Assembly: GCA_963813815.1 (NCBI GenBank)
Contig: CAWFAD010000016.1
Location: 320,001 to 384,000, forward strand
From: an uncultured bacterium
GTDB taxonomy: Bacteria; Krumholzibacteriota; Krumholzibacteriia; Krumholzibacteriales; Krumholzibacteriaceae
Direction of reading: 5' to 3'
DNA: 64,000 bases
In this document: positions 39,770 to 48,025 of the stretch, piece by piece
Layout: each line of letters starts with the position of its first letter
How positions within the stretch are numbered: position 1 is the stretch's first letter
Made by a program: the position numbers and the translations under genes
Notes under the pieces: generated by a model
What the model was told of the DNA's origin: nothing
What the model saw: only the letters and a program-made list of their open reading frames with translations
Database searches by the model: none

Positions 39770-40801
39770 CTATTCCACCTTCCCGAGCGGCATGACGTAG
39801 AGCGGCTCCTCCGCGCGCGTCATCCCGACGGCCTTCTTGAGCCGCAGATCGTCGAACGCGCCGAGGGCGCACGTGCCGACCTTGAGAGCGTACGCCTCGA
39901 GGTACACGTTCTCCGCGGAATGCCCGAGATCCATGCAGACGTAACGATCGCGCCCGCGCTGGCCGTACTTCACCATCGTCCGCTCGTACACGGCCGAGTA
40001 TACGATCGCCGCCGAGGCCGTCTTGAAATGGGGCTGGTCGAAGCAGGCCTTGCTCACCTCGTCGCGCCGGTCTCCCTCGGCGACGCGCACGAGCCGATGC
40101 GTCTCCGACTTGTAGTAGTAGATGCCGTCCGGAAGGCCGGTCACGTCGAAGGCCGCGAGGTAGATGTCGAGCGGGTAGCGGCCTCCGGCCGAGGGCGCCG
40201 TCCGCAGACCCCCTCGAAGGAAGGCGGGCGGGTTCTCGCGCGTTTTCGTGATTCCGTAGGCCGCCCAGAGGAGCTGGGAGGTCTCCTCGAGCGCGAGGGG
40301 CTTCTCGACGTAGGAGCGGATCGATCTGCGGTTCGCGAGGGCCGCCTCGATCGATACCGTTCCGTCGAGGCGCGGGGCGGGGAGGTCGATCGCGGGGCCG
40401 TCCGGGTGGGTCTCCGGGAATGATCTCTCCACGAACGCGATCTTCTGCTGGATCGAGTCCATGACGGCCTTCCATTGGCTTCCGCTCCGAAGGCTCTCGA
40501 GATCCGCGTCCGCCGCGAGCGTCTCCTTTTCGAGGAATCCCGCCTCGATCGCCTTGAAGAGATATCCGTAGGCGGCCTCCGGCTTGCCGACCCGGGCGCC
40601 GGCGCAGGCGGCGTTGTAGAAATCGTTGTAGCTCCACTCGCCCGTTTCGAAGGCCCTTTCGTAGAGGGCGAGGGCGTTCTCGTATTCCTTGGCCATGAGC
40701 TTCGACTCGGCCTCCCGGACGAGGGCGTCGTATCCCTGCGCCAGTGAGGCGGAGGCGAGCCCCAGAAATACGACAGCCGCCATCGCAACGCGCATTCTCA
40801 T
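39770..40801 (-). CDS. SagB/ThcOx-family nitroreductase with signal peptide and TPR-like N-terminal domain
   Basis: RBS ggagg; YNAAC TPR-like segment; RRSIR, SQLLWAAYGIT, RTAPSAG, DLGHSAENVYL. Confidence 0.88.
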   Translation of the reverse strand: MRMRVAMAAVVFLGLASASLAQGYDALVREAESKLMAKEYENALALYERAFETGEWSYNDFYNAACAGARVGKPEAAYGYLFKAIEAGFLEKETLAADADLESLRSGSQWKAVMDSIQQKIAFVERSFPETHPDGPAIDLPAPRLDGTVSIEAALANRRSIRSYVEKPLALEETSQLLWAAYGITKTRENPPAFLRGGLRTAPSAGGRYPLDIYLAAFDVTGLPDGIYYYKSETHRLVRVAEGDRRDEVSKACFDQPHFKTASAAIVYSAVYERTMVKYGQRGRDRYVCMDLGHSAENVYLEAYALKVGTCALGAFDDLRLKKAVGMTRAEEPLYVMPLGKVE

Positions 40802-40879: not shown

Positions 40880-42262
40880 GTGGAGAGAAAATCTCGTTTC
40901 AAGCATGACGGCGTGCTGCACGCCACCATAAACGGCCACCGGTTCCACCTTCGGCGCAAGGACCCGACACGCGACGACTTTCTCTGGATCGACGGCCGGC
41001 AGCCGCCGATCGTTCTCGATCGGACTGCGGCTGATTTCGTTTCTCATCTCATCGACGCGATGTGGCTCCATCAGCGGGGCAACGGAGACCAGTCGCAAGC
41101 GGTGATCGACTACGTCGTGGAAAAGATGGCCGGGCGCTACTCGCGGGGGCCGCGCCTTTTCGGGCGCGCCGTCGCGCGCGAGACGATCGCCGCCGACCTG
41201 AACAGAATCTTCGGCACGCTGATGAGACTCGCGGAAGGGACGTGTCCCGCGGAAGCGGGGCTCGGTTCGAAGGAGATACGATACGGGAAGTGGCTCGCGC
41301 CCGCCCGCATGGATCTCGCCGTGACCTACCGGTGCAACCTGAAATGCGGGAAATGCTACGTCGGCGACCGGCGCGTCGAGCGGGAGCTCGGCACGCGGGA
41401 ATGGGTCTGCGTCTACGAGACGCTCTGGAAGTCGGGCGTGCCGCAGGTCGTTTTCACCGGCGGGGAGCCGACGCTGCGGGACGATATCGTAGAGCTCGTG
41501 AGCGAGGCCGACGAGTTCGTCACCGGTCTCGTCACGAACGGCACGAGGCTCCGCGAGCTCTCCGAGGCCCTGCGCGACGCGAGCCTCGACTACGCGCAGG
41601 TCACGGTCGAGTCGTTCGACGCCGGGATTCACGACCGGATCGTCCACGCGGACGGATCGCACGCGAAGACCGTGGCCGGCATCGAACGGGCCCTCGCCGC
41701 GGGCCTCGAGATCGTGACCAATACCACGCTCACCCGCGCCAACGCCGCCTCGTTCGTCGAGACCGTGAGATGGCTGCACGGCCTCGGCATCAGGAACGTC
41801 GCCTGCAACACGCTCATCTGCAGCGGTCACGGGGTGGAATACCGGAGAGAGAACGGGCTCGACGAGAAGTCGCTCGGGGGGCTGCTCGCCGCCGCCCGCC
41901 GGACGGCGGAGGATCTGGGGATCGCGTTTCAGTGGTATTCCCCGACGTGCTATCACGGCGGCGTCGATCCGGTCGCGCTCGGCCTCGGCGTCAAAACCTG
42001 CTCGGCGGCGGCGCACAACATGACGATTCAGCCGGACGGCACGGTGCTCCCCTGCCAGTCGTGGCCCGACGCCGTGGGGAATATTCTGAAGGACGAGTGG
42101 GGCTCGATCTGGCGGCATCCGGTCTGCGTGAAGCTGCGCGAACGGCGAATGACGCCTGCGGAGTGCCGCGGGTGCGAGCACGAGATCTCGTGCGGCGGCG
42201 GGTGTCCCCTCGACGCGTCTCCGCGAATCAAGAGCGCGGGGGAAAAGGGGGCGATCGCGTGA
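40880..42262 (+). CDS. Radical SAM/SPASM protein with PqqD/RRE-like N-terminal domain
   Basis: TYRCNLKCGKCY, FTGGEPTLR, VTNG; SPASM CSAA..IQPDGTVLPCQS..CRGCEHEISCGGGCP; N-terminal VLDRTAADFV..VARETIAADL. Confidence 0.9.
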   Translation: MERKSRFKHDGVLHATINGHRFHLRRKDPTRDDFLWIDGRQPPIVLDRTAADFVSHLIDAMWLHQRGNGDQSQAVIDYVVEKMAGRYSRGPRLFGRAVARETIAADLNRIFGTLMRLAEGTCPAEAGLGSKEIRYGKWLAPARMDLAVTYRCNLKCGKCYVGDRRVERELGTREWVCVYETLWKSGVPQVVFTGGEPTLRDDIVELVSEADEFVTGLVTNGTRLRELSEALRDASLDYAQVTVESFDAGIHDRIVHADGSHAKTVAGIERALAAGLEIVTNTTLTRANAASFVETVRWLHGLGIRNVACNTLICSGHGVEYRRENGLDEKSLGGLLAAARRTAEDLGIAFQWYSPTCYHGGVDPVALGLGVKTCSAAAHNMTIQPDGTVLPCQSWPDAVGNILKDEWGSIWRHPVCVKLRERRMTPAECRGCEHEISCGGGCPLDASPRIKSAGEKGAIA

Positions 42263-43221
42263 AACGAATGCTGCCCCTCTTTCTCCTTGTCTGCCTCACG
42301 TCGATGGCCGGCGGATCGCTCGCCGGGGACACCGGGACCTACCGGATACTGAGCTACCGGGTCGCCTTGACTCCCCGCTCCGACGGCACGGTCGCGATCG
42401 ACTACTATCAAAAATGGCTCGTCACCGGCGGTCACATCCCCTGGATCACCGTGGGGACCGCCAACGACGATTTCGAGATAACGAGCCGCGGCGGCGCCGC
42501 GCTGGCGGTCGCGCCTGCCGGTCAGGGGGGCTGGAGCGGCGCGCGGCTCGATCTCGACGCGGACTATCGAGAGGGACGGACCTTCGAGGTTTCGTTCTCG
42601 ATCGCTCAGAGGCGGCTGTTCTACGCCGACAAGGACGGCTACCGGCTCGACTTCACGCCCGGCTGGTATGATCGCGCCGCCGTCGAAACGCTTCTCGTGA
42701 GCGTGAGATTCTTCGCCGACCCGGCGACGGTCGTCGTGGAGCCGCCGGCGTCGCGCGTTTCGGGCGATACGATGGAATGGGTCCGGCACGGTCTCGGAGC
42801 GGGAGAACGGTTCAACGTTCACGTATCCATACCTCGCGCGGCATTCCCGGCCGGCATCGCCGCGGGCGAGCTTCGGGGAGGCGCCGGCGGGAAGAGCTCC
42901 GGTTCGGGCGGTCTCGTCGCCTTCGTGATCGTCGTGCTCGTCATTCTTATCATCGTCGTCGTCCTGCGCTCGAGGGGAGGCCCTTACTCCGGCGGAAGAA
43001 TATTTTACGGAGGAATGCCGGGCGGGCGTTCGAGCGGCGGCAGGTCCGGGGGCGGCCGATCGAGCGGCGGAGGGGGCGGATTCGGCGGAGCGTCGATGTC
43101 CTGCGCGTGCGCGTGCGTGAGCTGCGCCTGCGCTTGCGCGTGCGCCGGCGGGGGCGGGGCCGGGTGCGCCAGAAAATCGGAGCACTCGTGCCCGCTCTGC
43201 GGGAAGGAGAGGACACCGTGA
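42259..43221 (+). CDS. DUF2207-like membrane protein with Gly-rich and (Cys-Ala)n C-terminal tail
   Basis: GTGA overlap with the radical SAM stop; signal peptide; YRVALTPRSDGTV; TM LVAFVIVVLVILIIVVVL-RSR; tail SCACACVSCACACACAGGGGAGCARKSEHSCPLCGK. Confidence 0.88.
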   Translation: MKRMLPLFLLVCLTSMAGGSLAGDTGTYRILSYRVALTPRSDGTVAIDYYQKWLVTGGHIPWITVGTANDDFEITSRGGAALAVAPAGQGGWSGARLDLDADYREGRTFEVSFSIAQRRLFYADKDGYRLDFTPGWYDRAAVETLLVSVRFFADPATVVVEPPASRVSGDTMEWVRHGLGAGERFNVHVSIPRAAFPAGIAAGELRGGAGGKSSGSGGLVAFVIVVLVILIIVVVLRSRGGPYSGGRIFYGGMPGGRSSGGRSGGGRSSGGGGGFGGASMSCACACVSCACACACAGGGGAGCARKSEHSCPLCGKERTP

Positions 43222-43760
43222 AGAGGATCGCCCGCTGCCTTTTCATCCTCGCGACGCTCGCCGCCTGCGAGGGCGGTGCGGATCGATACGACAAAAACGT
43301 CGCGGTTCCGAGGGGAGACCCTGCGTTTCCTCCGCTCGGCGCGTCGTGGGTGATCGACCGGGCCGGGGTCCTGTCGGAGCCCGTGATCGCGGCGAACGAC
43401 GCGATCTGCGAGAAGCTCAAGGCGGACGGCGTCGCCGAGGTCGTCGTGGTGATCGTGAACGGCGTCAAGCAGCCGGAGGATTGGGCCACGCATTACGGGC
43501 GATGGCTCGGTCTCGGGAGCAAGGGCCTCAGCGCCGATGGGGGGAACCGGGGGCTCGTGTGGCTCGTTCGGCCCGACGCGGAGGAAAAGCTGACCGTGTC
43601 CGTGGGGCGGGGGCTTCCCCGGTTCACGACGGTCGACTACGGCGGCATCATGGATGACGCCGTCGAGTATTTCAATTTCGGCAACTTCGACGGGGGCGTC
43701 GCGACGCTCGTCGCCCGAACGGACGAGGTCCTGCGAAGGATAAGCGTCGAAGGGAAGTAG
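43218..43760 (+). CDS. TPM-domain (DUF477-like) lipoprotein
   Basis: RBS aaggagagg; lipobox LAAC; WVIDRAGVLS, NRGLVWLV, VSVGRGL, GNFDGG. Confidence 0.85.
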   Translation: MKRIARCLFILATLAACEGGADRYDKNVAVPRGDPAFPPLGASWVIDRAGVLSEPVIAANDAICEKLKADGVAEVVVVIVNGVKQPEDWATHYGRWLGLGSKGLSADGGNRGLVWLVRPDAEEKLTVSVGRGLPRFTTVDYGGIMDDAVEYFNFGNFDGGVATLVARTDEVLRRISVEGK

Positions 43761-43778
43761 AGGAGAAAGGAGCCTCAC

Positions 43779-44402
43779 GTGAAAAAGTCCGCCGCGGGGA
43801 TCGCCGTGCTGATCGTCGTCATAGGCATCGTCGCCTTCTCTCTCGTGTCGTCGGGAGTCGGCGTCTGGAACAAGCTCAATCAGAAATTCCAGATGGTGGA
43901 GGGAGGCAAATCGCATTACTCGGCGGCCCTCAACACCTGCACGGAAAAGATCAAGGGCGTCTGGGAGATGGCCATTCAGTACATGGAGCATGAATCGGAA
44001 ACGTATCGCGCAGTGGCCGAAGCGCGCAGCGGCTACGACGCGGCGAGGGATGCGTTCGAGCAGGCGTCGGCGGAGGTCGGCGACACCGAAGCGCTCACGA
44101 AGGCGGGCTCGGAGGTTGTGAGAGCGGCCATGGCCTTCAGGATCCAGGTCGAGGCGTATCCTCAGCTTCGGGCCGCCGAGACGTCGCAGGAGAACATGCG
44201 CAACCTCGAGTCGTCGGTGAACGAGATCAAGACCGCGCTCGACGACTGGGTGGTCACGATCCGTGAGTACAATACCTATCGCGGCTCGGCATGGCCGTCC
44301 ATGCTCGGAGGTTTCATGAAGAAGTTTCCGCCGCGGATCGAGTACTACGAGGGCGAGATCGAAAAGCTCGATATCGACGATCTCAACCCCGCGAAGGGGT
44401 AA
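43779..44402 (+). CDS. lemA: LemA family protein
   Basis: N-terminal TM; YMEHESET, QVEAYPQLRA, EYNTY...WPS. Confidence 0.85.
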   Translation: MKKSAAGIAVLIVVIGIVAFSLVSSGVGVWNKLNQKFQMVEGGKSHYSAALNTCTEKIKGVWEMAIQYMEHESETYRAVAEARSGYDAARDAFEQASAEVGDTEALTKAGSEVVRAAMAFRIQVEAYPQLRAAETSQENMRNLESSVNEIKTALDDWVVTIREYNTYRGSAWPSMLGGFMKKFPPRIEYYEGEIEKLDIDDLNPAKG

Positions 44403-44655: not shown

Positions 44656-45345
44656 ATGCGCAAAATGCTCTTCGCGTTCCTATCCGTTATTCTCTTGCCG
44701 GCGCTCCTCGCGGCCGAGCCCGTGAGCGGCGTATTCAACTCCACCGATCTCGGCGGGCAGTTCCTGACCGGCCGCTACTCGAACTGGCGTCCCAAAAGCA
44801 CGCAGGGCACGCCGCGCGTGCTTCACATGCAGTCATGGGACGGCGCGGCTCTCGGCACTCAGTGGGACATCACGTGCCCGCTCTCTGCGACGGATTTTGC
44901 GACGGTGGACAACCGCGTGGGCGGCGTCGGCACGGTCGTCTACACGCTCAACATGAGCGGCGGAACCTTTACGTTGGCCGCCGGCGGTTGGCCGTGGGGA
45001 GACGGTTTGGGAACGCTCGGTGTCACGGTCTTTAGAACGACCGAGACCTATGCTCTCGTCAGCGGCACAGCCACGTTGATCTCGACTGTCAACAGCGGGA
45101 ACACGTACGGATCGTTCGTCAACGACTGCGCGCTCGAGCTCTCGTGGACCGGAGGCATACAGGTCAACGAGACGCCGTACGCCACGAAGCCGACGACGTA
45201 TCCTTCGTTCATCGGGAGCACCTGCGCTGCGGCGACGGCGCTCTACGGCGAATGGGGAGGCATCACCGCTATGACCCTCTTGATCGACTGCCCCATCGCG
45301 ACCGATGAATCCACCTGGGGAGCGATCAAGCAGCTCTATCGGTAA
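44656..45345 (+). CDS. Secreted protein with C-terminal TWGxIKxxYR motif
   Basis: Signal peptide; ends ATDESTWGAIKQLYR. Confidence 0.85.
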   Translation: MRKMLFAFLSVILLPALLAAEPVSGVFNSTDLGGQFLTGRYSNWRPKSTQGTPRVLHMQSWDGAALGTQWDITCPLSATDFATVDNRVGGVGTVVYTLNMSGGTFTLAAGGWPWGDGLGTLGVTVFRTTETYALVSGTATLISTVNSGNTYGSFVNDCALELSWTGGIQVNETPYATKPTTYPSFIGSTCAAATALYGEWGGITAMTLLIDCPIATDESTWGAIKQLYR

Positions 45346-45374
45346 GCTTCGACGATTCGATTCGGGAAATCTCC

Positions 45375-45412
45375 AAGGGGGGCGAGCTCAAAAGGCCGCC
45401 CCCTTCTTCTTT
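45375..45412 (+). terminator. Probable intrinsic terminator
   Basis: aaggggggcg..cgccccctt followed by cttcttt. Confidence 0.5.
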
Positions 45413-45472
45413 GATCGCGCCGCCGTTTTGATTGCCCCGCCGCCGCCGCCCGCATGCTGTATAATCCGATCG

Positions 45473-48025
45473 ATGCGAACGACGCTCGAGAGCTATCTCG
45501 ACGATTTTCTCTCGCGCGGCGACGAAACGGCCCTGGCGCGTCGCCGCGGGCTGCGGACCATTCGCACGTCCTACGGAGGGCTCGCGCGCGGTGCCTTTCG
45601 ATTCTCGCGCGAGCTCGAGGAGCGAGGCGTCGGCAGGGGCGATCGAGTTGTCCTTCAGGGGGAAAACGGCGCCGGCTGGGTCGCCGTGTTTCTCGGCTGC
45701 CTCGTTCGCGGGGCGATCGTCGTGCCGCTCGACGCTCGGAGCGAGCCGGGATTCGCGGCCCGGGTCGCGCGCCGGGTCGAGCCGAAGCTCGCCGTGATCG
45801 ATTCCGCCGCGGGGGGCGCCGGAGCGTTCGGCTGCCCGGCGGTGCCGCTCGGGGATCTGGAGGACCTCCTCTCGCGCCATCCGGCCGAACCGCGCCCCGC
45901 CGCGCTCATCGATCCGGACGACGCCCTCGAGATCGTCTTTACCTCCGGCACGACGGCCGAGCCGAGGGGCGTGCTCGTCACCCGCCGCAACCTGCTCGCG
46001 AATCTCGGGGCGCTCGAGCGGGAGATCATTCCGTACCTCAAGTACGAGTGGCTCGTCCATCCGATGCGGTTTCTGAACCTCGTGCCCCTGAGCCACGTGT
46101 TCGGGCAGATCATGGGCATGTTCGTGCCGCAGATGCTGGGAGGAGAGGTGTTCTTCCAGGAATCCCTCGGCCCCTCGCGCGTCATCGAGACGATCGAGCG
46201 GGAGCGGATATCGGTTCTCGTCGCCGTGCCGAGGATGCTCGATTCGCTCCGCGAGACGATCACCCGCGACCTCGAGGCGCGGGGCGCGATCGAAGGGTTC
46301 CACCGCTCGTTCGAAGGCGAGCGGGGACGCCATCCCCTTCGGCGCTGGTGGAGGTTTCGCGCGATCCATTCGCGATTCGGATGGAGGTTTTGGGCCTTCA
46401 TCTCAGGGGGCGCCTCGCTCTCGCCGGAAACGGAGGAGTTCTGGGACCGGCTCGGATTCGCCGTCATTCAGGGCTACGGCATGACCGAGACCGCCTCCCT
46501 CGTCAGCGTCAATCATCCCCTGAGGCTCGTCCGCGGATCGATCGGCAAGGCGATGCCCGGCACCTCGGTACGGCTCGCGGCGGACGGGGAGATACTGGTT
46601 CGCGGCGAGAGCGTCACTCCGGGATACTGGAAGGACGCGTCCGGCGCCGAGTCGTCGCCCGACGGGTGGTTTCACACCGGCGACATCGGGGAGATGGACG
46701 CGGAAGGAAATCTCTATTTCAAGGGACGCGCGAAAGAGGTCATCGTCACCGCCGCGGGGATGAAGATCCATCCGGGGGACATCGAGCGGGCGTTCGATCG
46801 CGAGCCCGAGGTCAGGGCGTCCGCCGTCATAGCCGCCGCGGGGGCCGGCGGGCCGGAGCCGCTCGCCGTGCTCGCTCTTCGCCGGAAGGCCGATGCGAAG
46901 GCCCTCGTCGACCGCGTCAACCGATCGCTCGCGCCGTACCAGCGCGTTCGCCGCTGGTTCGTCTGGCCGGAAGACGATCTCCCGCGCACGCCGACGCAGA
47001 AGGTCATGAAGCGGCTCGTCGCCGAGAAAGCGCTCGCCGGGGAGGCGATCGGCGCCGGGCGCGGGGAAGCCCTTGATGTCGCCCCCGGGATCGACTCGAT
47101 CGTCTCGCGGCTCGGCGGCGGAGCGGGACGGGCGAACGATCCATCCGCGAGGCTCGGAGCCGACCTCGGCCTCGATTCGCTCGGCCGGGTCGAGCTTCTC
47201 GACGCCGTCGAGGAGCAATACCGGATCGATCTCGACGAGGCGGCGCTCACGGAGGAAACGACGCTCGGCGATCTCGAGCGGCTCGTGCGGGGCGGAAGCG
47301 GTGGGCGGGAGTCGCCGTATCCGTATCCGCGGTGGCAGCGGAGGCCCCCCCTGAGTTGGCTCGGACTCGCGATGCTCGAGCTCCTCGCCATGCCGGCGGC
47401 GAGGCTCCTCGGACGGCCGCGAACGAGCGGCGGAGAGTTCGCGAAGAATATTCGCGGTCCGTTCGTCATCGTCTGCAACCACGTCACGGCGGTCGATCAC
47501 GCGTTCGTGCTTCTGGCCCTCCCGCGGAGGATGCGGAGGCGCACGGCGATCGCCATGGACGGAGAGATACTGCGCGAGAGGCGGCATCCGCCCCCGGGAA
47601 CGCCGATGCTCGCGCGCGTTTCCCTCGCGATCCAGTACGCTCTCGTCGTTCTGTGCTTCAACGTGTTTTCGATGCCGCGGCGGAGCGGCTTCCGGAAGAG
47701 CTTCGAGTTCGCCGGAGGGCTCCTCGATCGCGGATACAATCTGCTCGTGTTTCCGGAGGGGCGCCACACGGAGGACGGAGCGATCGGCCCCTTCATGCCG
47801 GGGACGGGCCTCCTCGTTTCGAGGCTCGACGCGCCGGTGATTCCCCTGCGGCTCGACGGACTGTGGGAGCTCAAGAAGGCGCGTAGGCGCCGGGCGCGGC
47901 CGGGAGAGATTTCGATCGTCATCGGGGAGCCGGTGCGGTATTCGCCGAATGATCGTCCCGAGCGGATCGCCGCCGATCTCGGCGCGCGCGTGAGGGGTCT
48001 CGGGCGCGGTCCGTCCGGGCAATAA
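45473..48025 (+). CDS. Acyl-CoA synthetase + ACP + PlsC-type acyltransferase fusion
   Basis: FTSGTTAEPRG, QGYGMTE, FHTGD; LGLDSLGRVEL; CNHVTAVD, VFPEG. Confidence 0.9.
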   Translation: MRTTLESYLDDFLSRGDETALARRRGLRTIRTSYGGLARGAFRFSRELEERGVGRGDRVVLQGENGAGWVAVFLGCLVRGAIVVPLDARSEPGFAARVARRVEPKLAVIDSAAGGAGAFGCPAVPLGDLEDLLSRHPAEPRPAALIDPDDALEIVFTSGTTAEPRGVLVTRRNLLANLGALEREIIPYLKYEWLVHPMRFLNLVPLSHVFGQIMGMFVPQMLGGEVFFQESLGPSRVIETIERERISVLVAVPRMLDSLRETITRDLEARGAIEGFHRSFEGERGRHPLRRWWRFRAIHSRFGWRFWAFISGGASLSPETEEFWDRLGFAVIQGYGMTETASLVSVNHPLRLVRGSIGKAMPGTSVRLAADGEILVRGESVTPGYWKDASGAESSPDGWFHTGDIGEMDAEGNLYFKGRAKEVIVTAAGMKIHPGDIERAFDREPEVRASAVIAAAGAGGPEPLAVLALRRKADAKALVDRVNRSLAPYQRVRRWFVWPEDDLPRTPTQKVMKRLVAEKALAGEAIGAGRGEALDVAPGIDSIVSRLGGGAGRANDPSARLGADLGLDSLGRVELLDAVEEQYRIDLDEAALTEETTLGDLERLVRGGSGGRESPYPYPRWQRRPPLSWLGLAMLELLAMPAARLLGRPRTSGGEFAKNIRGPFVIVCNHVTAVDHAFVLLALPRRMRRRTAIAMDGEILRERRHPPPGTPMLARVSLAIQYALVVLCFNVFSMPRRSGFRKSFEFAGGLLDRGYNLLVFPEGRHTEDGAIGPFMPGTGLLVSRLDAPVIPLRLDGLWELKKARRRRARPGEISIVIGEPVRYSPNDRPERIAADLGARVRGLGRGPSGQ

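Follow-up and report, generated by a model that had tools for sequence, protein, structure and literature searches.

Genes and features at the locus

The locus lies in the window, i.e., the whole stretch of 64,000 nucleotides that was analysed, and comprises four genes read in the same direction. These encode a radical SAM/SPASM enzyme (rSAM), a membrane protein with a Cys-rich tail (tail protein), a TPM-domain lipoprotein and a LemA-family protein. The genes and their features are as follows:

40880..42262, + strand: rSAM gene, radical SAM/SPASM enzyme of 460 aa (open reading frame)
40880..41236, + strand: predicted RRE-type (PqqD-like winged-helix) domain of the enzyme, residues 1-119 (predicted structure, VIA-align, Foldseek)
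41333..41356, + strand: CxxxCxxC (C152, C156, C159) for the SAM-binding 4Fe-4S cluster, then Tyr160 (invariant in 58/58 homologues)
41948..42205, + strand: SPASM region with seven invariant Cys, C357, C374, C392, C429, C432, C438 and C442 (58/58 homologues)
42259..43221, + strand: tail protein gene, 320 aa (translation)
42325..42888, + strand: outer (extracytoplasmic) domain, residues 23-210, distant relative of the DUF2207 N-domain (hhalign)
42910..42966, + strand: transmembrane helix, residues 218-236 (Kyte-Doolittle 19-residue mean up to 3.74)
42985..43014, + strand: YSGGRIFYGG segment just inside the membrane, candidate RRE recognition sequence (conservation)
43099..43167, + strand: Cys-Ala core SCACACVSCACACACAGGGGAGC, residues 281-303, candidate modification site (conservation)
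43183..43200, + strand: H-x-C-P-x-C end motif, residues 309-314 (conservation)
43218..43760, + strand: TPM-domain lipoprotein gene, 180 aa, lipobox LAAC (Pfam TPM_phosphatase, E 9.3e-14)
43779..44402, + strand: LemA-family gene, 207 aa, N-terminal transmembrane anchor (Pfam LemA, E 1.4e-14)

Gene order, overlaps and domain content can be read directly. The rSAM stop codon and the GTG start of the tail gene overlap in a GTGA sequence, the tail gene and the TPM gene are joined in the same way, and lemA starts 18 nt past the TPM stop, preceded by a GGAG-type ribosome site. The initial annotation of this DNA had described both overlaps (at 42259 and 43218) and the position of lemA, and all of these are present in the sequence. 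The TPM and LemA matches score 51.9 and 54.6 bits, respectively, against Pfam cut-offs of 22.1 and 26.2.

The tail protein begins with a signal-like hydrophobic stretch, followed by the outer domain, a single transmembrane helix, an Arg-rich sequence (RSR) C-terminal to the helix and a Gly/Ser/Arg linker; it ends with SCACACVSCACACACAGGGGAGC..H.CP.C, so that 10 Cys fall within residues 282-314. Every element of this architecture had been annotated from the start and was found again here. The protein has no match in Pfam or NCBIfam; its outer domain aligns in hhalign with that of a second tail-bearing family, a DUF2207-type protein of 620 aa (probability 99.1, E 1.1e-18). A total of 744 tail-protein homologues were collected, as were 708 representatives at 50% identity. 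Across 45 homologues, Y243, G245, G246, G251 and G252 of the YSGGRIFYGG segment are invariant or nearly so, and the segment is altered in divergent pairs such as L020. As a lead only, 23 of the 30 nearest Atlas clusters of the outer domain are DUF2207 (score 0.91).

The tail is predicted to be cytoplasmic, because in three proteins in which TPM is fused to the tail protein (P0118, L050 and L028) the tail falls between two transmembrane segments, with the exported DUF2207-like and TPM domains on the outer sides.

Conservation of the tail and its pairing with the enzyme

The tail is extremely conserved at the protein level: mean pairwise identity is 98% in the Cys-Ala core as compared to 58% in the outer domain. 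At the DNA level, the core occurs in 90 distinct versions among 100 loci, and synonymous change is free, including switches between AGY and TCN serine codons. In the end motif, H309 and C311 are invariant in the homologue alignment and C314 almost so; the motif is missing from the 620-aa type, which stops right after GGGG, and from the L050 fusion. The genome (2.53 Mb) contains one site coding for (Cys-Ala)4, the one at the locus, and no site coding for the reversed control pattern; since the motif is also kept in hundreds of relatives, it cannot be ascribed to chance. Among the best 150 of the 708 representatives of the outer-domain family, 129 carry a Cys-rich tail, 128 of them with a CxCxC-type run and one without; 16 of the other 21 are fragments under 280 aa.

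The pairing of the tail with the enzyme family is complete across lineages and gene arrangements. The tail gene lies directly downstream in 17/17 genome loci found via the enzyme. In the phylum of the window, the tail protein occurs in 17 of 208 genomes and an enzyme orthologue (E below 1e-150) in the same 17, the two genes adjoining on one contig in 16 of them. In a second phylum, 5 of 285 genomes have the tail protein, and the adjacent enzyme is present in these 5 as well; one further enzyme of this phylum, 41% identical (G311), lies behind an open reading frame ending in a Cys-Ala/Val run and GGGGH. Conversely, when 85 metagenome loci were collected by the tail motif alone, an enzyme-family gene was next door in all 48 that could be evaluated: upstream in 42/42 loci of the short type, and downstream, as a full-length homologue 37-42% identical, in 6/6 loci of the 620-aa type. 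The latter type, whose 21 members all end in the same motif (21/21), differs from the short one in host protein and has a convergent orientation, yet it keeps the enzyme partner. Overall, the pairing is retained with enzymes diverged to 37-46% identity. Co-occurrence was one of the checks named at the outset, and it came out in favour: tail and enzyme occur together wherever the loci could be evaluated.

The association with the other two genes, also proposed initially, holds in part. Among motif-seeded loci, TPM comes next after the tail gene in 64 of the 73 that extend at least 500 nt downstream, and LemA is present in 45 of the 51 that extend at least 1100 nt; however, this tie is looser, as the pair occurs without TPM and LemA at L014, at L020 and in the 620-aa type. 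The four coupled genes are a real, conserved system. As for a small precursor gene, whose absence near the locus had been remarked upon, no conserved candidate fits at the rSAM-tail loci: the two genes overlap or abut, so that there is no room for one between them, and the gene upstream of rSAM varies from locus to locus.

Architecture of the enzyme and its closest known relatives

The enzyme matches Pfam Radical_SAM (E 1.8e-22) and SPASM (37.8 bits vs a cut-off of 21.5; residues 374-433). Thirteen of its Cys, including the annotated CxxxCxxC and SPASM cysteines, are invariant in 58/58 homologues, and an extra Cys after C442 is found in 2/58 only. No NCBIfam model claims the enzyme at its cut-off; the best scores come from non-thioether families (NirJ2, PqqE and a pseudo-SAM family), and the StsB family model gives 84 bits vs a cut-off of 625. 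Searching PDB sequences returned PqqE, SkfB, SuiB and CteB. Sequence similarity does not fix the chemistry among SPASM enzymes.

The predicted structure (pLDDT 85, pTM 0.86) has SkfB, SuiB and CteB on top in Foldseek, and its best structural matches are SuiB, SkfB, PqqE, anSME and CteB. The superposition on SuiB is full length (Z 25.8; model residues 14-451 on about 4-439 of the chain), as is that on SkfB (Z 24.9); anSME reaches Z 22.8 and the CteB core Z 22. The model thus points to the three-domain build of peptide maturases, i.e., an RRE-type N-terminal domain, a radical SAM barrel and a SPASM/twitch domain, as in SuiB, SkfB and CteB, although sequence identity to these is 14-19% and their substrates are small free peptides. 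Catalytic-site landmarks, placed by motif spacing only, are mixed: Tyr160 is StsB-like, while Thr219 and Ser245 are compatible with StsB or CteB.

For the first 120 residues, the predicted order of elements is strand-strand-strand(-strand)-helix-helix-helix (strands 12-17, 20-25, 33-37 and 44-46; helices 48-64, 72-87 and 100-118). The best VIA-align matches are the lasso-peptide RRE proteins 6jx3_B and 5v1u_A (Z 6.7, short of the 8 that the tool itself treats as comfortable; rmsd 2.6 Å over 79 residues), followed by the CteB RRE (CteB residues 1-79; Z 5.8) and PqqD (Z 5.4); DNA-binding winged helices of response regulators also reach Z 5-6. Foldseek placed TbiB1 in the top five positions (E 0.07-0.24), with nothing at E 0.001 or better, and Pfam PqqD matched 0 of 11 N-domains of the enzyme family. 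Resemblance of this segment to PqqD/RRE had been noticed at the outset, and the fold check on the N-terminal residues named beforehand came out in its favour: an RRE (PqqD-like) fold is moderately supported, with middling scores.

To our knowledge, ordinary LemA-DUF2207 members have Gly-rich tails without Cys and no radical SAM partner. Such pairs are known neighbours whose function is described as unknown (PMC12631010); we found no paper tying them to a radical SAM enzyme. The present locus resembles them in its LemA and TPM genes, both above Pfam cut-offs, and in the distantly DUF2207-like outer domain.

One of the two characterised cases closest in logic is CrpC of Methanococcus voltae, an RRE-radical SAM enzyme that puts thioethers (ranthionine) on the full-size protein CrpA (PMC13692751). 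As described there, CrpC shares with our enzyme a seven-Cys SPASM region and an adjacent gene for a full-size substrate protein whose Cys-rich part is C-terminal. It differs in belonging to TIGR04463, and CrpA, at 28.8 kDa, carries ten repeats of a 17-residue motif as well as C-x-x-Q/D sites, whereas here a Cys-Ala run is borne on a membrane protein; the description includes no LemA, TPM or DUF2207 context, and the word "membrane" is absent from the main text. The same source describes QhpD, a radical SAM enzyme with RRE that forms intra-protein Cys thioethers in a protein subunit, QhpC, rather than in a natural-product peptide; QhpC differs in that it is described as an enzyme subunit that is small and exported, and in that its links join Cys to Asp or Glu. 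In the StsB system, a core of the pattern CxCxCx4GxGxG is closed into a hairpin by Cys-Gly sactionines, and the first of the catalytic-site residues of StsB is Tyr (PMC10288494). StsB/StsA and BlaB/BlaA share with our system the core motif, found within the tail, and StsB shares with our enzyme the Tyr after CxxxCxxC (Y113 in StsB, Y160 here); StsA, however, is a small leader-core peptide, whereas the tail also includes another CACAC half and additional Cys. Finally, TIGR04222 membrane proteins with C-terminal, low-complexity, Cys-bearing tails were proposed as in-place substrates of MNIO enzymes, which act as RiPP-type enzymes (PMC12452194), and the 620-aa relatives match TIGR04222 weakly (E 2.4e-5; 24 bits vs a cut-off of 43). 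As presented in that source, those enzymes are not of the radical SAM type but form another superfamily, the predicted location of the tails is the periplasm, and the proteins, mostly from Actinomycetota, are not systematically associated with the enzyme.

Possible modification of the tail by the enzyme

We consider it likely, with a probability of roughly 60%, that the enzyme, once docked on the cytoplasmic tail, puts thioether cross-links on the tail cysteines in place. The RRE-type domain would bind the linker (YSGGRIFYGG) or the tail itself, one auxiliary cluster would have a free iron that could hold a substrate Cys, and 5′-deoxyadenosyl radical chemistry would link the Cys sulfur to a Gly or Ala carbon. 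As a guess, Cys-Gly sactionines might close the tail into a hairpin like that of StsA: tail residues C289-x-C291-x-C293-x4-G298-x-G300-x-G302 fit the StsA pattern, although runs of Gly readily give such a fit and the 620-aa type shows it only in part. The product would form a rigid knot, either resistant to proteases and redox change or able to bind metal, on the cytoplasmic side of an envelope module made up of DUF2207, TPM and LemA. If true, this would be an undescribed modification whose substrate is a whole membrane protein. Protein substrates have published precedent in QhpD and in CrpC/CrpA (2026) (PMC13692751), and our literature search found neither this enzyme family nor any membrane-protein substrate in print.

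The pairing of enzyme and tail would equally suit a radical chemistry other than thioether formation, such as oxidation of Cys to formylglycine or dehydroalanine, as anSME does, epimerisation at Ala or Cys, bonds from carbon to carbon or to oxygen, or insertion of sulfur or a metal cluster. The closeness of anSME in structure, the scatter of the best NCBIfam and PDB sequence scores across families that catalyse very different reactions and the mixed landmarks speak for this option. However, anSME is not known to carry an RRE domain and targets C/S-x-P/A-x-R, a motif that is presumably not in the tail. Moreover, the logically closest Cys-rich cases, CrpA and StsA, both receive thioethers according to their descriptions (PMC13692751, PMC10288494), and we regard another chemistry as unlikely.

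The tail could also work unmodified, since CxC repeats typify metal-thiolate binders, and within 33 residues it has ten Cys, which form such repeats, and one His. It would then be a membrane-tethered metal or iron-sulfur module of the metallothionein type, with the radical SAM protein as a partner in cluster or metal handling or electron transfer. The invariance of every Cys suits ligand roles, and the CrpC authors suspect metal binding by their own Cys-rich protein (PMC13692751). Nevertheless, the Ala and Gly that separate and follow the cysteines are no less invariant in the alignment than Cys, which plain metal ligation would not demand; the enzyme has the full predicted maturase build, including the RRE-type domain, and among the loci compared the cassette has no conserved metal transporter or chaperone. 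An unmodified tail thus appears rather improbable.

That the adjacency reflects mere co-transfer or co-regulation, with TPM, LemA, a small molecule or some small peptide missing from the annotation as the true substrate, is very improbable: the cassette is patchy, like mobile gene sets, but the pairing outlasts loss of TPM and LemA, convergent orientation, a different host protein and enzyme divergence, and the gene junctions and variable upstream neighbours leave no place for a conserved small gene.

With a mean of 1.7, the Cys-Ala stretch shows mild hydrophobicity and might sit in or on the membrane.

A four-gene cassette and its Cys-Ala tail

All four genes described in the initial annotation are present in the sequence, together with the two GTGA junctions and the 18-nt spacing before lemA.

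Genes of the cassette (window positions, strand)
40880-42262 (+): radical SAM/SPASM enzyme, 460 aa; its stop lies within a GTGA shared with the start of the tail-protein gene
42259-43221 (+): tail protein, 320 aa; a second GTGA overlap joins it to the TPM gene
43218-43760 (+): TPM gene; PF04536 at 51.9 bits (cut-off 22.1), residues 45-170
43779-44402 (+): lemA; PF04011 at 54.6 bits (cut-off 26.2); 18 nt after the TPM gene, with a ribosome-binding site ahead

The identities given to the enzyme, TPM and LemA hold, since their Pfam scores all exceed the curated cut-offs; for the enzyme these are PF04055 Radical_SAM (E 1.8e-22, 80.7 bits, cut-off 29.5) and PF13186 SPASM (37.8 bits, cut-off 21.5). 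Likewise, the tail protein has the architecture first proposed for it, with a signal-type N-terminus, an outer domain, one transmembrane (TM) helix (residues 218-236), an Arg-rich Gly/Ser linker, the stretch SCACACVSCACACACAGGGGAGC and a short end containing H-x-C-P-x-C, 10 Cys falling within 33 residues. A small precursor gene had been reported as absent and, indeed, we find no leader-core peptide; the sole conserved partner of the enzyme is the membrane protein of 320 aa or, in a second type, of about 620 aa. The cassette has neither a conserved protease nor a conserved exporter.

No family matches the tail protein in Pfam (E up to 0.01), where the DUF2207 models PF09972 and PF20990 gave no direct match, or in NCBIfam, where TIGR04222 gave none; the 53-residue tail alone has no fitting NCBIfam curated family. 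Among the nearest Atlas clusters of the outer domain, 23 of 30 are DUF2207, which serves as a lead.

The genome contains a single (Cys-Ala)4-coding site, that of the tail gene. A homology search with the tail protein recovered 744 relatives, and the C-terminal end is near letter-perfect among the 120 matches listed. When 45 diverse members were aligned, the mean pairwise identity reached 98% in the Cys-Ala core, as against 58% for the outer domain and 53% for the linker; it was lowest, at 22%, in the membrane helix. The 57 nt coding for the core occur in 90 versions across 100 loci, most of which were picked by an amino-acid-level pattern and so display codon freedom rather than motif frequency; the third positions are free and Ser alternates between AGY and TCN codons, so the core is neither a DNA or RNA element nor a product of slippage. 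The tail is under strong selection as a protein.

A profile search of 1.84 billion representatives gave 708 proteins at E <=0.001, and 409 at <=1e-10. The best 150 of the 708 include 36 with the double motif, 92 with another CxCxC-type run and one with a Cys-rich end devoid of such a run; the remaining 21 lack a Cys-rich tail, 16 of them being fragments under 280 aa. The commonest tail variant among the best 150 is (Cys-Ala)4-5 followed by GGGRAGC, and the common denominator of the tails is (Cys-Ala)n-GGG-x-x-G-C, a core that recurs in hundreds of DUF2207-like proteins from about eight phyla. In a large sister group of the family (proteins P0330-P0413), the double motif is replaced by the end (Cys-Ala)4-5-GGGRAGC-S-R/K-K-DFY.

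Pairing of enzyme and tail across genomes

The pairing was analyzed using three designs: enzyme-seeded loci, whole-genome presence/absence and tail-motif-seeded loci. In the enzyme-seeded design, the tail gene lies directly downstream in 17 of 17 genome loci (enzymes 57-77% identical), whose source names comprise Krumholzibacteria, Zixibacteria, a Patescibacteria-type genome and others. At loci with room, TPM comes next in 15/16 and LemA in 14/15; the exception is L014, on an 8.2-Mb chromosome, where enzyme and tail stand alone and TPM and LemA are absent. The whole four-gene cassette is kept at L016, which belongs to a genome of about 1.0 Mb (G210) labelled Paceibacterota (Patescibacteria) and encodes an enzyme 57% identical to that of the window.

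As for whole genomes, the counts are to be read as concordances and not as statistics, given the non-independence of related genomes: of 208 genomes in the window's phylum, 17 have the tail protein and exactly the same 17 the enzyme orthologue (E below 1e-150), while in the phylum of another genome, G208, both genes occur in 5 of 285, adjoining in all five. Enzyme and tail gene share a contig in 16 of the 17, and in G060 they lie on two short contigs. Three more enzyme matches in the window's phylum (E 1e-21 to 1e-25) are ordinary SPASM paralogues, and two genomes of the same genus lack both genes.

For the tail-motif design, a degenerate DNA pattern yielded 85 metagenome loci, 77 of the window type and 8 of the second, 620-aa type. 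An enzyme homologue was found upstream in all 42 window-type loci with at least 1300 nt of upstream sequence, and a full-length one, 37-42% identical and with its N-terminal domain (N-domain) included, just downstream in all six 620-aa loci with at least 700 nt downstream; in the latter the enzyme gene is convergent at five loci and co-directional at L038. The co-occurrence of tail and enzyme, first proposed as a check, was found in both genome sets and at every evaluable motif locus of either type. A first tally had counted seven motif loci lacking an enzyme; this was ruled out, as each of these loci either has an enzyme homologue, divergent or convergent, or is too short. Among the more distant cases, L020 combines an enzyme 46% identical with an altered tail linker and lacks TPM and LemA, and at L105 (G311:C721) a Cys-Val/Cys-Ala tail ending in GGGGH and a stop (1942-2085, -) lies directly upstream of a 41%-identical enzyme, whose ORF includes a masked stretch read as X.

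The 620-aa type ends in ...GGFTPPSCACACACVSCACACACAGGGGCT, or GGGGGT in one member; all 21 family members have such a C-terminus, and every named source belongs to the Bacillota. One member is a DUF2207 protein by NCBI name, and the family matches DUF2207_C weakly (E 5.5e-4, below cut-off) and TIGR04222 weakly (24.1 bits, cut-off 43); no NCBIfam curated family fits it. That two unrelated host proteins carry the motif was ruled out, since hhalign shows distant homology between the outer domain of the 320-aa type and that of the 620-aa type (probability 99.1, E 1.1e-18, 19% identity). A single old family has thus retained the tail as the rest of the protein diverged.

The position of the tail relative to the membrane can be approached through fusion proteins. 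P0118 and those at L050 (3388-5463) and L028, of 498-691 aa, consist of outer domain, TM helix, linker, Cys-Ala tail, second TM helix and TPM domain, the tail being a loop between two membrane helices; the L050 fusion has lost the H-x-CPxC end and kept the core. When unfused, both flanking domains are exported, the outer domain by a signal peptide and the TPM domain as a lipoprotein, so that a tail between the two helices would face the cytoplasm. From these sequences we infer that the tail must be cytoplasmic, within reach of the radical SAM enzyme, which has no signal peptide.

Other genes in the surroundings deserve a brief description. Divergent from the cassette is a SagB-type dehydrogenase gene (39770-40801, -; TIGR03605 E 9.8e-40, above cut-off), whose product combines a signal-like segment at its N-terminus with a TPR region, unusual for the SagB type. 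It was ruled out as a cassette part, being a neighbour only in a subset of the Krumholzibacteria-type loci, with 5 of the 17 genome loci (L003, L006, L009, L013 and L015) and 3 of the 85 motif loci; its presence at few loci, sometimes on the other side, probably reflects lineage synteny. Downstream, a 906-aa fusion (45305-48025, +) unites an AMP-binding enzyme, a phosphopantetheine carrier and an acyltransferase, and is found downstream in L008 too (72% identical). Near the 620-aa type, a glycyl-radical-enzyme activase is encoded at L045 (753-2159, -) and L025 (31-963, -) (TIGR02494, 362 bits, cut-off 174); it is probably unrelated to the enzyme-tail system.

Domain structure of the enzyme

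The CxxxCxxC motif of the enzyme (C152, C156, C159) is kept in 58 of 58 homologues, and its SPASM motif, C374-x12-G387-x4-C392 and C429-x2-C432-x5-C438-x3-C442, is invariant, the seventh Cys being C357. Overall, 13 Cys are invariant, including the seven of the SPASM region, and a Cys after C442 is found in merely 2 of 58 members. Three of the invariant Cys lie outside the known cluster motifs, namely C122 (in C122-P123), C309 and C314 (about 41243-41248 and 41804-41821); C122-P123 sits in the linker that follows the N-domain and persists even in the 620-aa-type enzymes, which have not kept C309 and C314.

The enzyme model (58 sequences; pLDDT 85, pTM 0.86) is composed of an N-domain (four short strands, three helices), a radical SAM barrel and the SPASM domain. 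Its top Foldseek matches are SkfB (E 8.9e-16), SuiB and CteB. VIA-align of the whole model gives SuiB at Z 25.8 (374 residues, model 16-451) and SkfB at Z 24.9 (model 20-445), while the matches to PqqE, BlsE, anSME and CteB cover the core, starting near residue 136. In a sequence comparison with solved chains, PqqE, SkfB, MoaA, SuiB and CteB come closest.

The N-domain had been likened to PqqD and other RiPP recognition elements (RRE), and its predicted topology follows the RRE plan, a three-stranded sheet and then three helices (winged helix), N-terminal to the catalytic domain. Folded alone (pLDDT 81), it is matched best in VIA-align by the lasso-peptide RRE proteins 6jx3_B and 5v1u_A (Z 6.7, rmsd 2.6 Å, 79 of 84-85 residues), then by CteB 1-79 (Z 5.8) and PqqD (Z 5.4 and 4.6), with MccB, TbtB, McbBCD and NisB lower; Z values under 8 are middling by the tool's own note, and OmpR-type DNA-binding winged helices also reach Z 5-6. 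In Foldseek the top five matches of the isolated domain are TbiB1 (E 0.07-0.24), none at E 0.001 or better, and an Atlas feature search places PqqD clusters at 0.87, which is a lead only. None of 11 N-domains matches PF05402 PqqD at E up to 10 beyond chance-level rows. The RRE claim stands for predicted fold and position, and the PqqD sequence match does not; we read the N-domain as an RRE-type fold in RRE position, from a sequence family that profiles do not yet cover.

The enzyme falls well below the cut-off of each of the 25 best of 61 NCBIfam families, which do not include TIGR04463. Among the curated maturase families, neither StsB (84 bits, cut-off 625) nor SkfB (61.5 bits, cut-off 300) is reached; the AlbA model appears on the L045 homologue only (62.9 bits, cut-off 850).

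Predicted modification of the tail and known systems

Most likely, with a probability of roughly 0.6, the RRE-type domain of the enzyme docks on the cytoplasmic linker or tail and the enzyme joins tail Cys to carbons of Gly or Ala by radical chemistry. The predicted product would be a knot of cross-links on the cytoplasmic side of the DUF2207-like protein, with TPM and LemA as partners that are often present but not required. Catalytic-site proximity profiling, a scheme taken from PMC10288494, bears on the type of linkage: Y160 corresponds to StsB Tyr113 in its position after the cluster motif, and the six positions Y160, T193, T219, S245, Q393 and S394, mapped by motif spacing only except for that correspondence, share 3/6 identities with StsB and 2/6 with CteB. 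These values are too weak for a choice between sactionine and ranthionine.

Alternatively, the enzyme could perform another chemistry on the same tail, which we consider unlikely. Less likely again is a tail that stays unmodified and binds a metal or a cluster; in the alignment of 45 members, the Ala and Gly of the core are as fixed as the Cys. The idea that enzyme and tail are merely co-located is very improbable.

If radical cross-linking of the tail does take place, it may be the first RiPP-style ladder of cross-links that a radical SAM enzyme builds in situ on an integral membrane protein, at its cytoplasmic tail, with the modified tail as the missing biochemical handle on LemA/TPM/DUF2207 modules; to this proposal we give slightly less than even odds. 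Such a tail could be, e.g., a metal- or redox-sensing knot that links the outer domains with the interior of the cell. Neither the enzyme class nor the notion of protein substrates is new. Radical SAM/SPASM maturases are known to act mainly on small secreted peptides, with QhpC and CrpA (2026) among the few protein substrates that we know of; modification of an integral membrane protein at its inner tail would extend this range. The LemA, TPM and DUF2207 modules abound in bacteria, and we know of no function for any of them; the enzyme-tail pairing would offer them a concrete biochemical step. Since the tail is short and invariant and has a single paired enzyme, co-expression with mass spectrometry could be attempted directly. 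The occurrence of the cassette in uncultured anaerobic lineages, one of them represented by a genome of about 1 Mb assigned to Patescibacteria, suggests that its function is worth retaining.

Searches of NCBIfam release 20.0 and of open-access papers and preprints found neither this family of enzymes nor the invariant Cys-Ala tail, nor a membrane protein as substrate in a LemA/TPM cassette; in the same literature, they found nothing relevant that ties a DUF2207, LemA or TPM domain to radical SAM/SPASM. LemA-DUF2207 pairs are known gene neighbours (PMC12631010). A parallel proposal concerns MNIO enzymes and TIGR04222 membrane proteins, and differs in enzyme class and in the predicted periplasmic location of the tails (PMC12452194); no MNIO (DUF692) gene is among the annotated neighbours here.

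Closest in logic is CrpC/CrpA, in which an RRE-rSAM-SPASM enzyme of the TIGR04463 family puts ranthionine links on an adjacent-encoded, Cys-rich protein of 28.8 kDa (PMC13692751). CrpC has seven SPASM Cys, the same number as the window's enzyme, and according to its authors three of them belong to auxiliary cluster I, where one iron is then left open to a substrate Cys (PMC13692751). Unlike the Cys-Ala tail, CrpA repeats a 17-residue unit with C-x-x-Q/D, and membranes are nowhere mentioned in the main text of that article (PMC13692751). Closest in motif is StsB/StsA, where three Cys-Gly sactionines turn a CxCxCx4GxGxG core into a hairpin (PMC10288494); the stretch from C289 to G302 of the tail fits this pattern, a fit that comes easily in a Gly run. 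Sactipeptide and ranthipeptide maturases act on a small leader-core precursor that is then released or exported, whereas the partner of the window's enzyme is a membrane protein.
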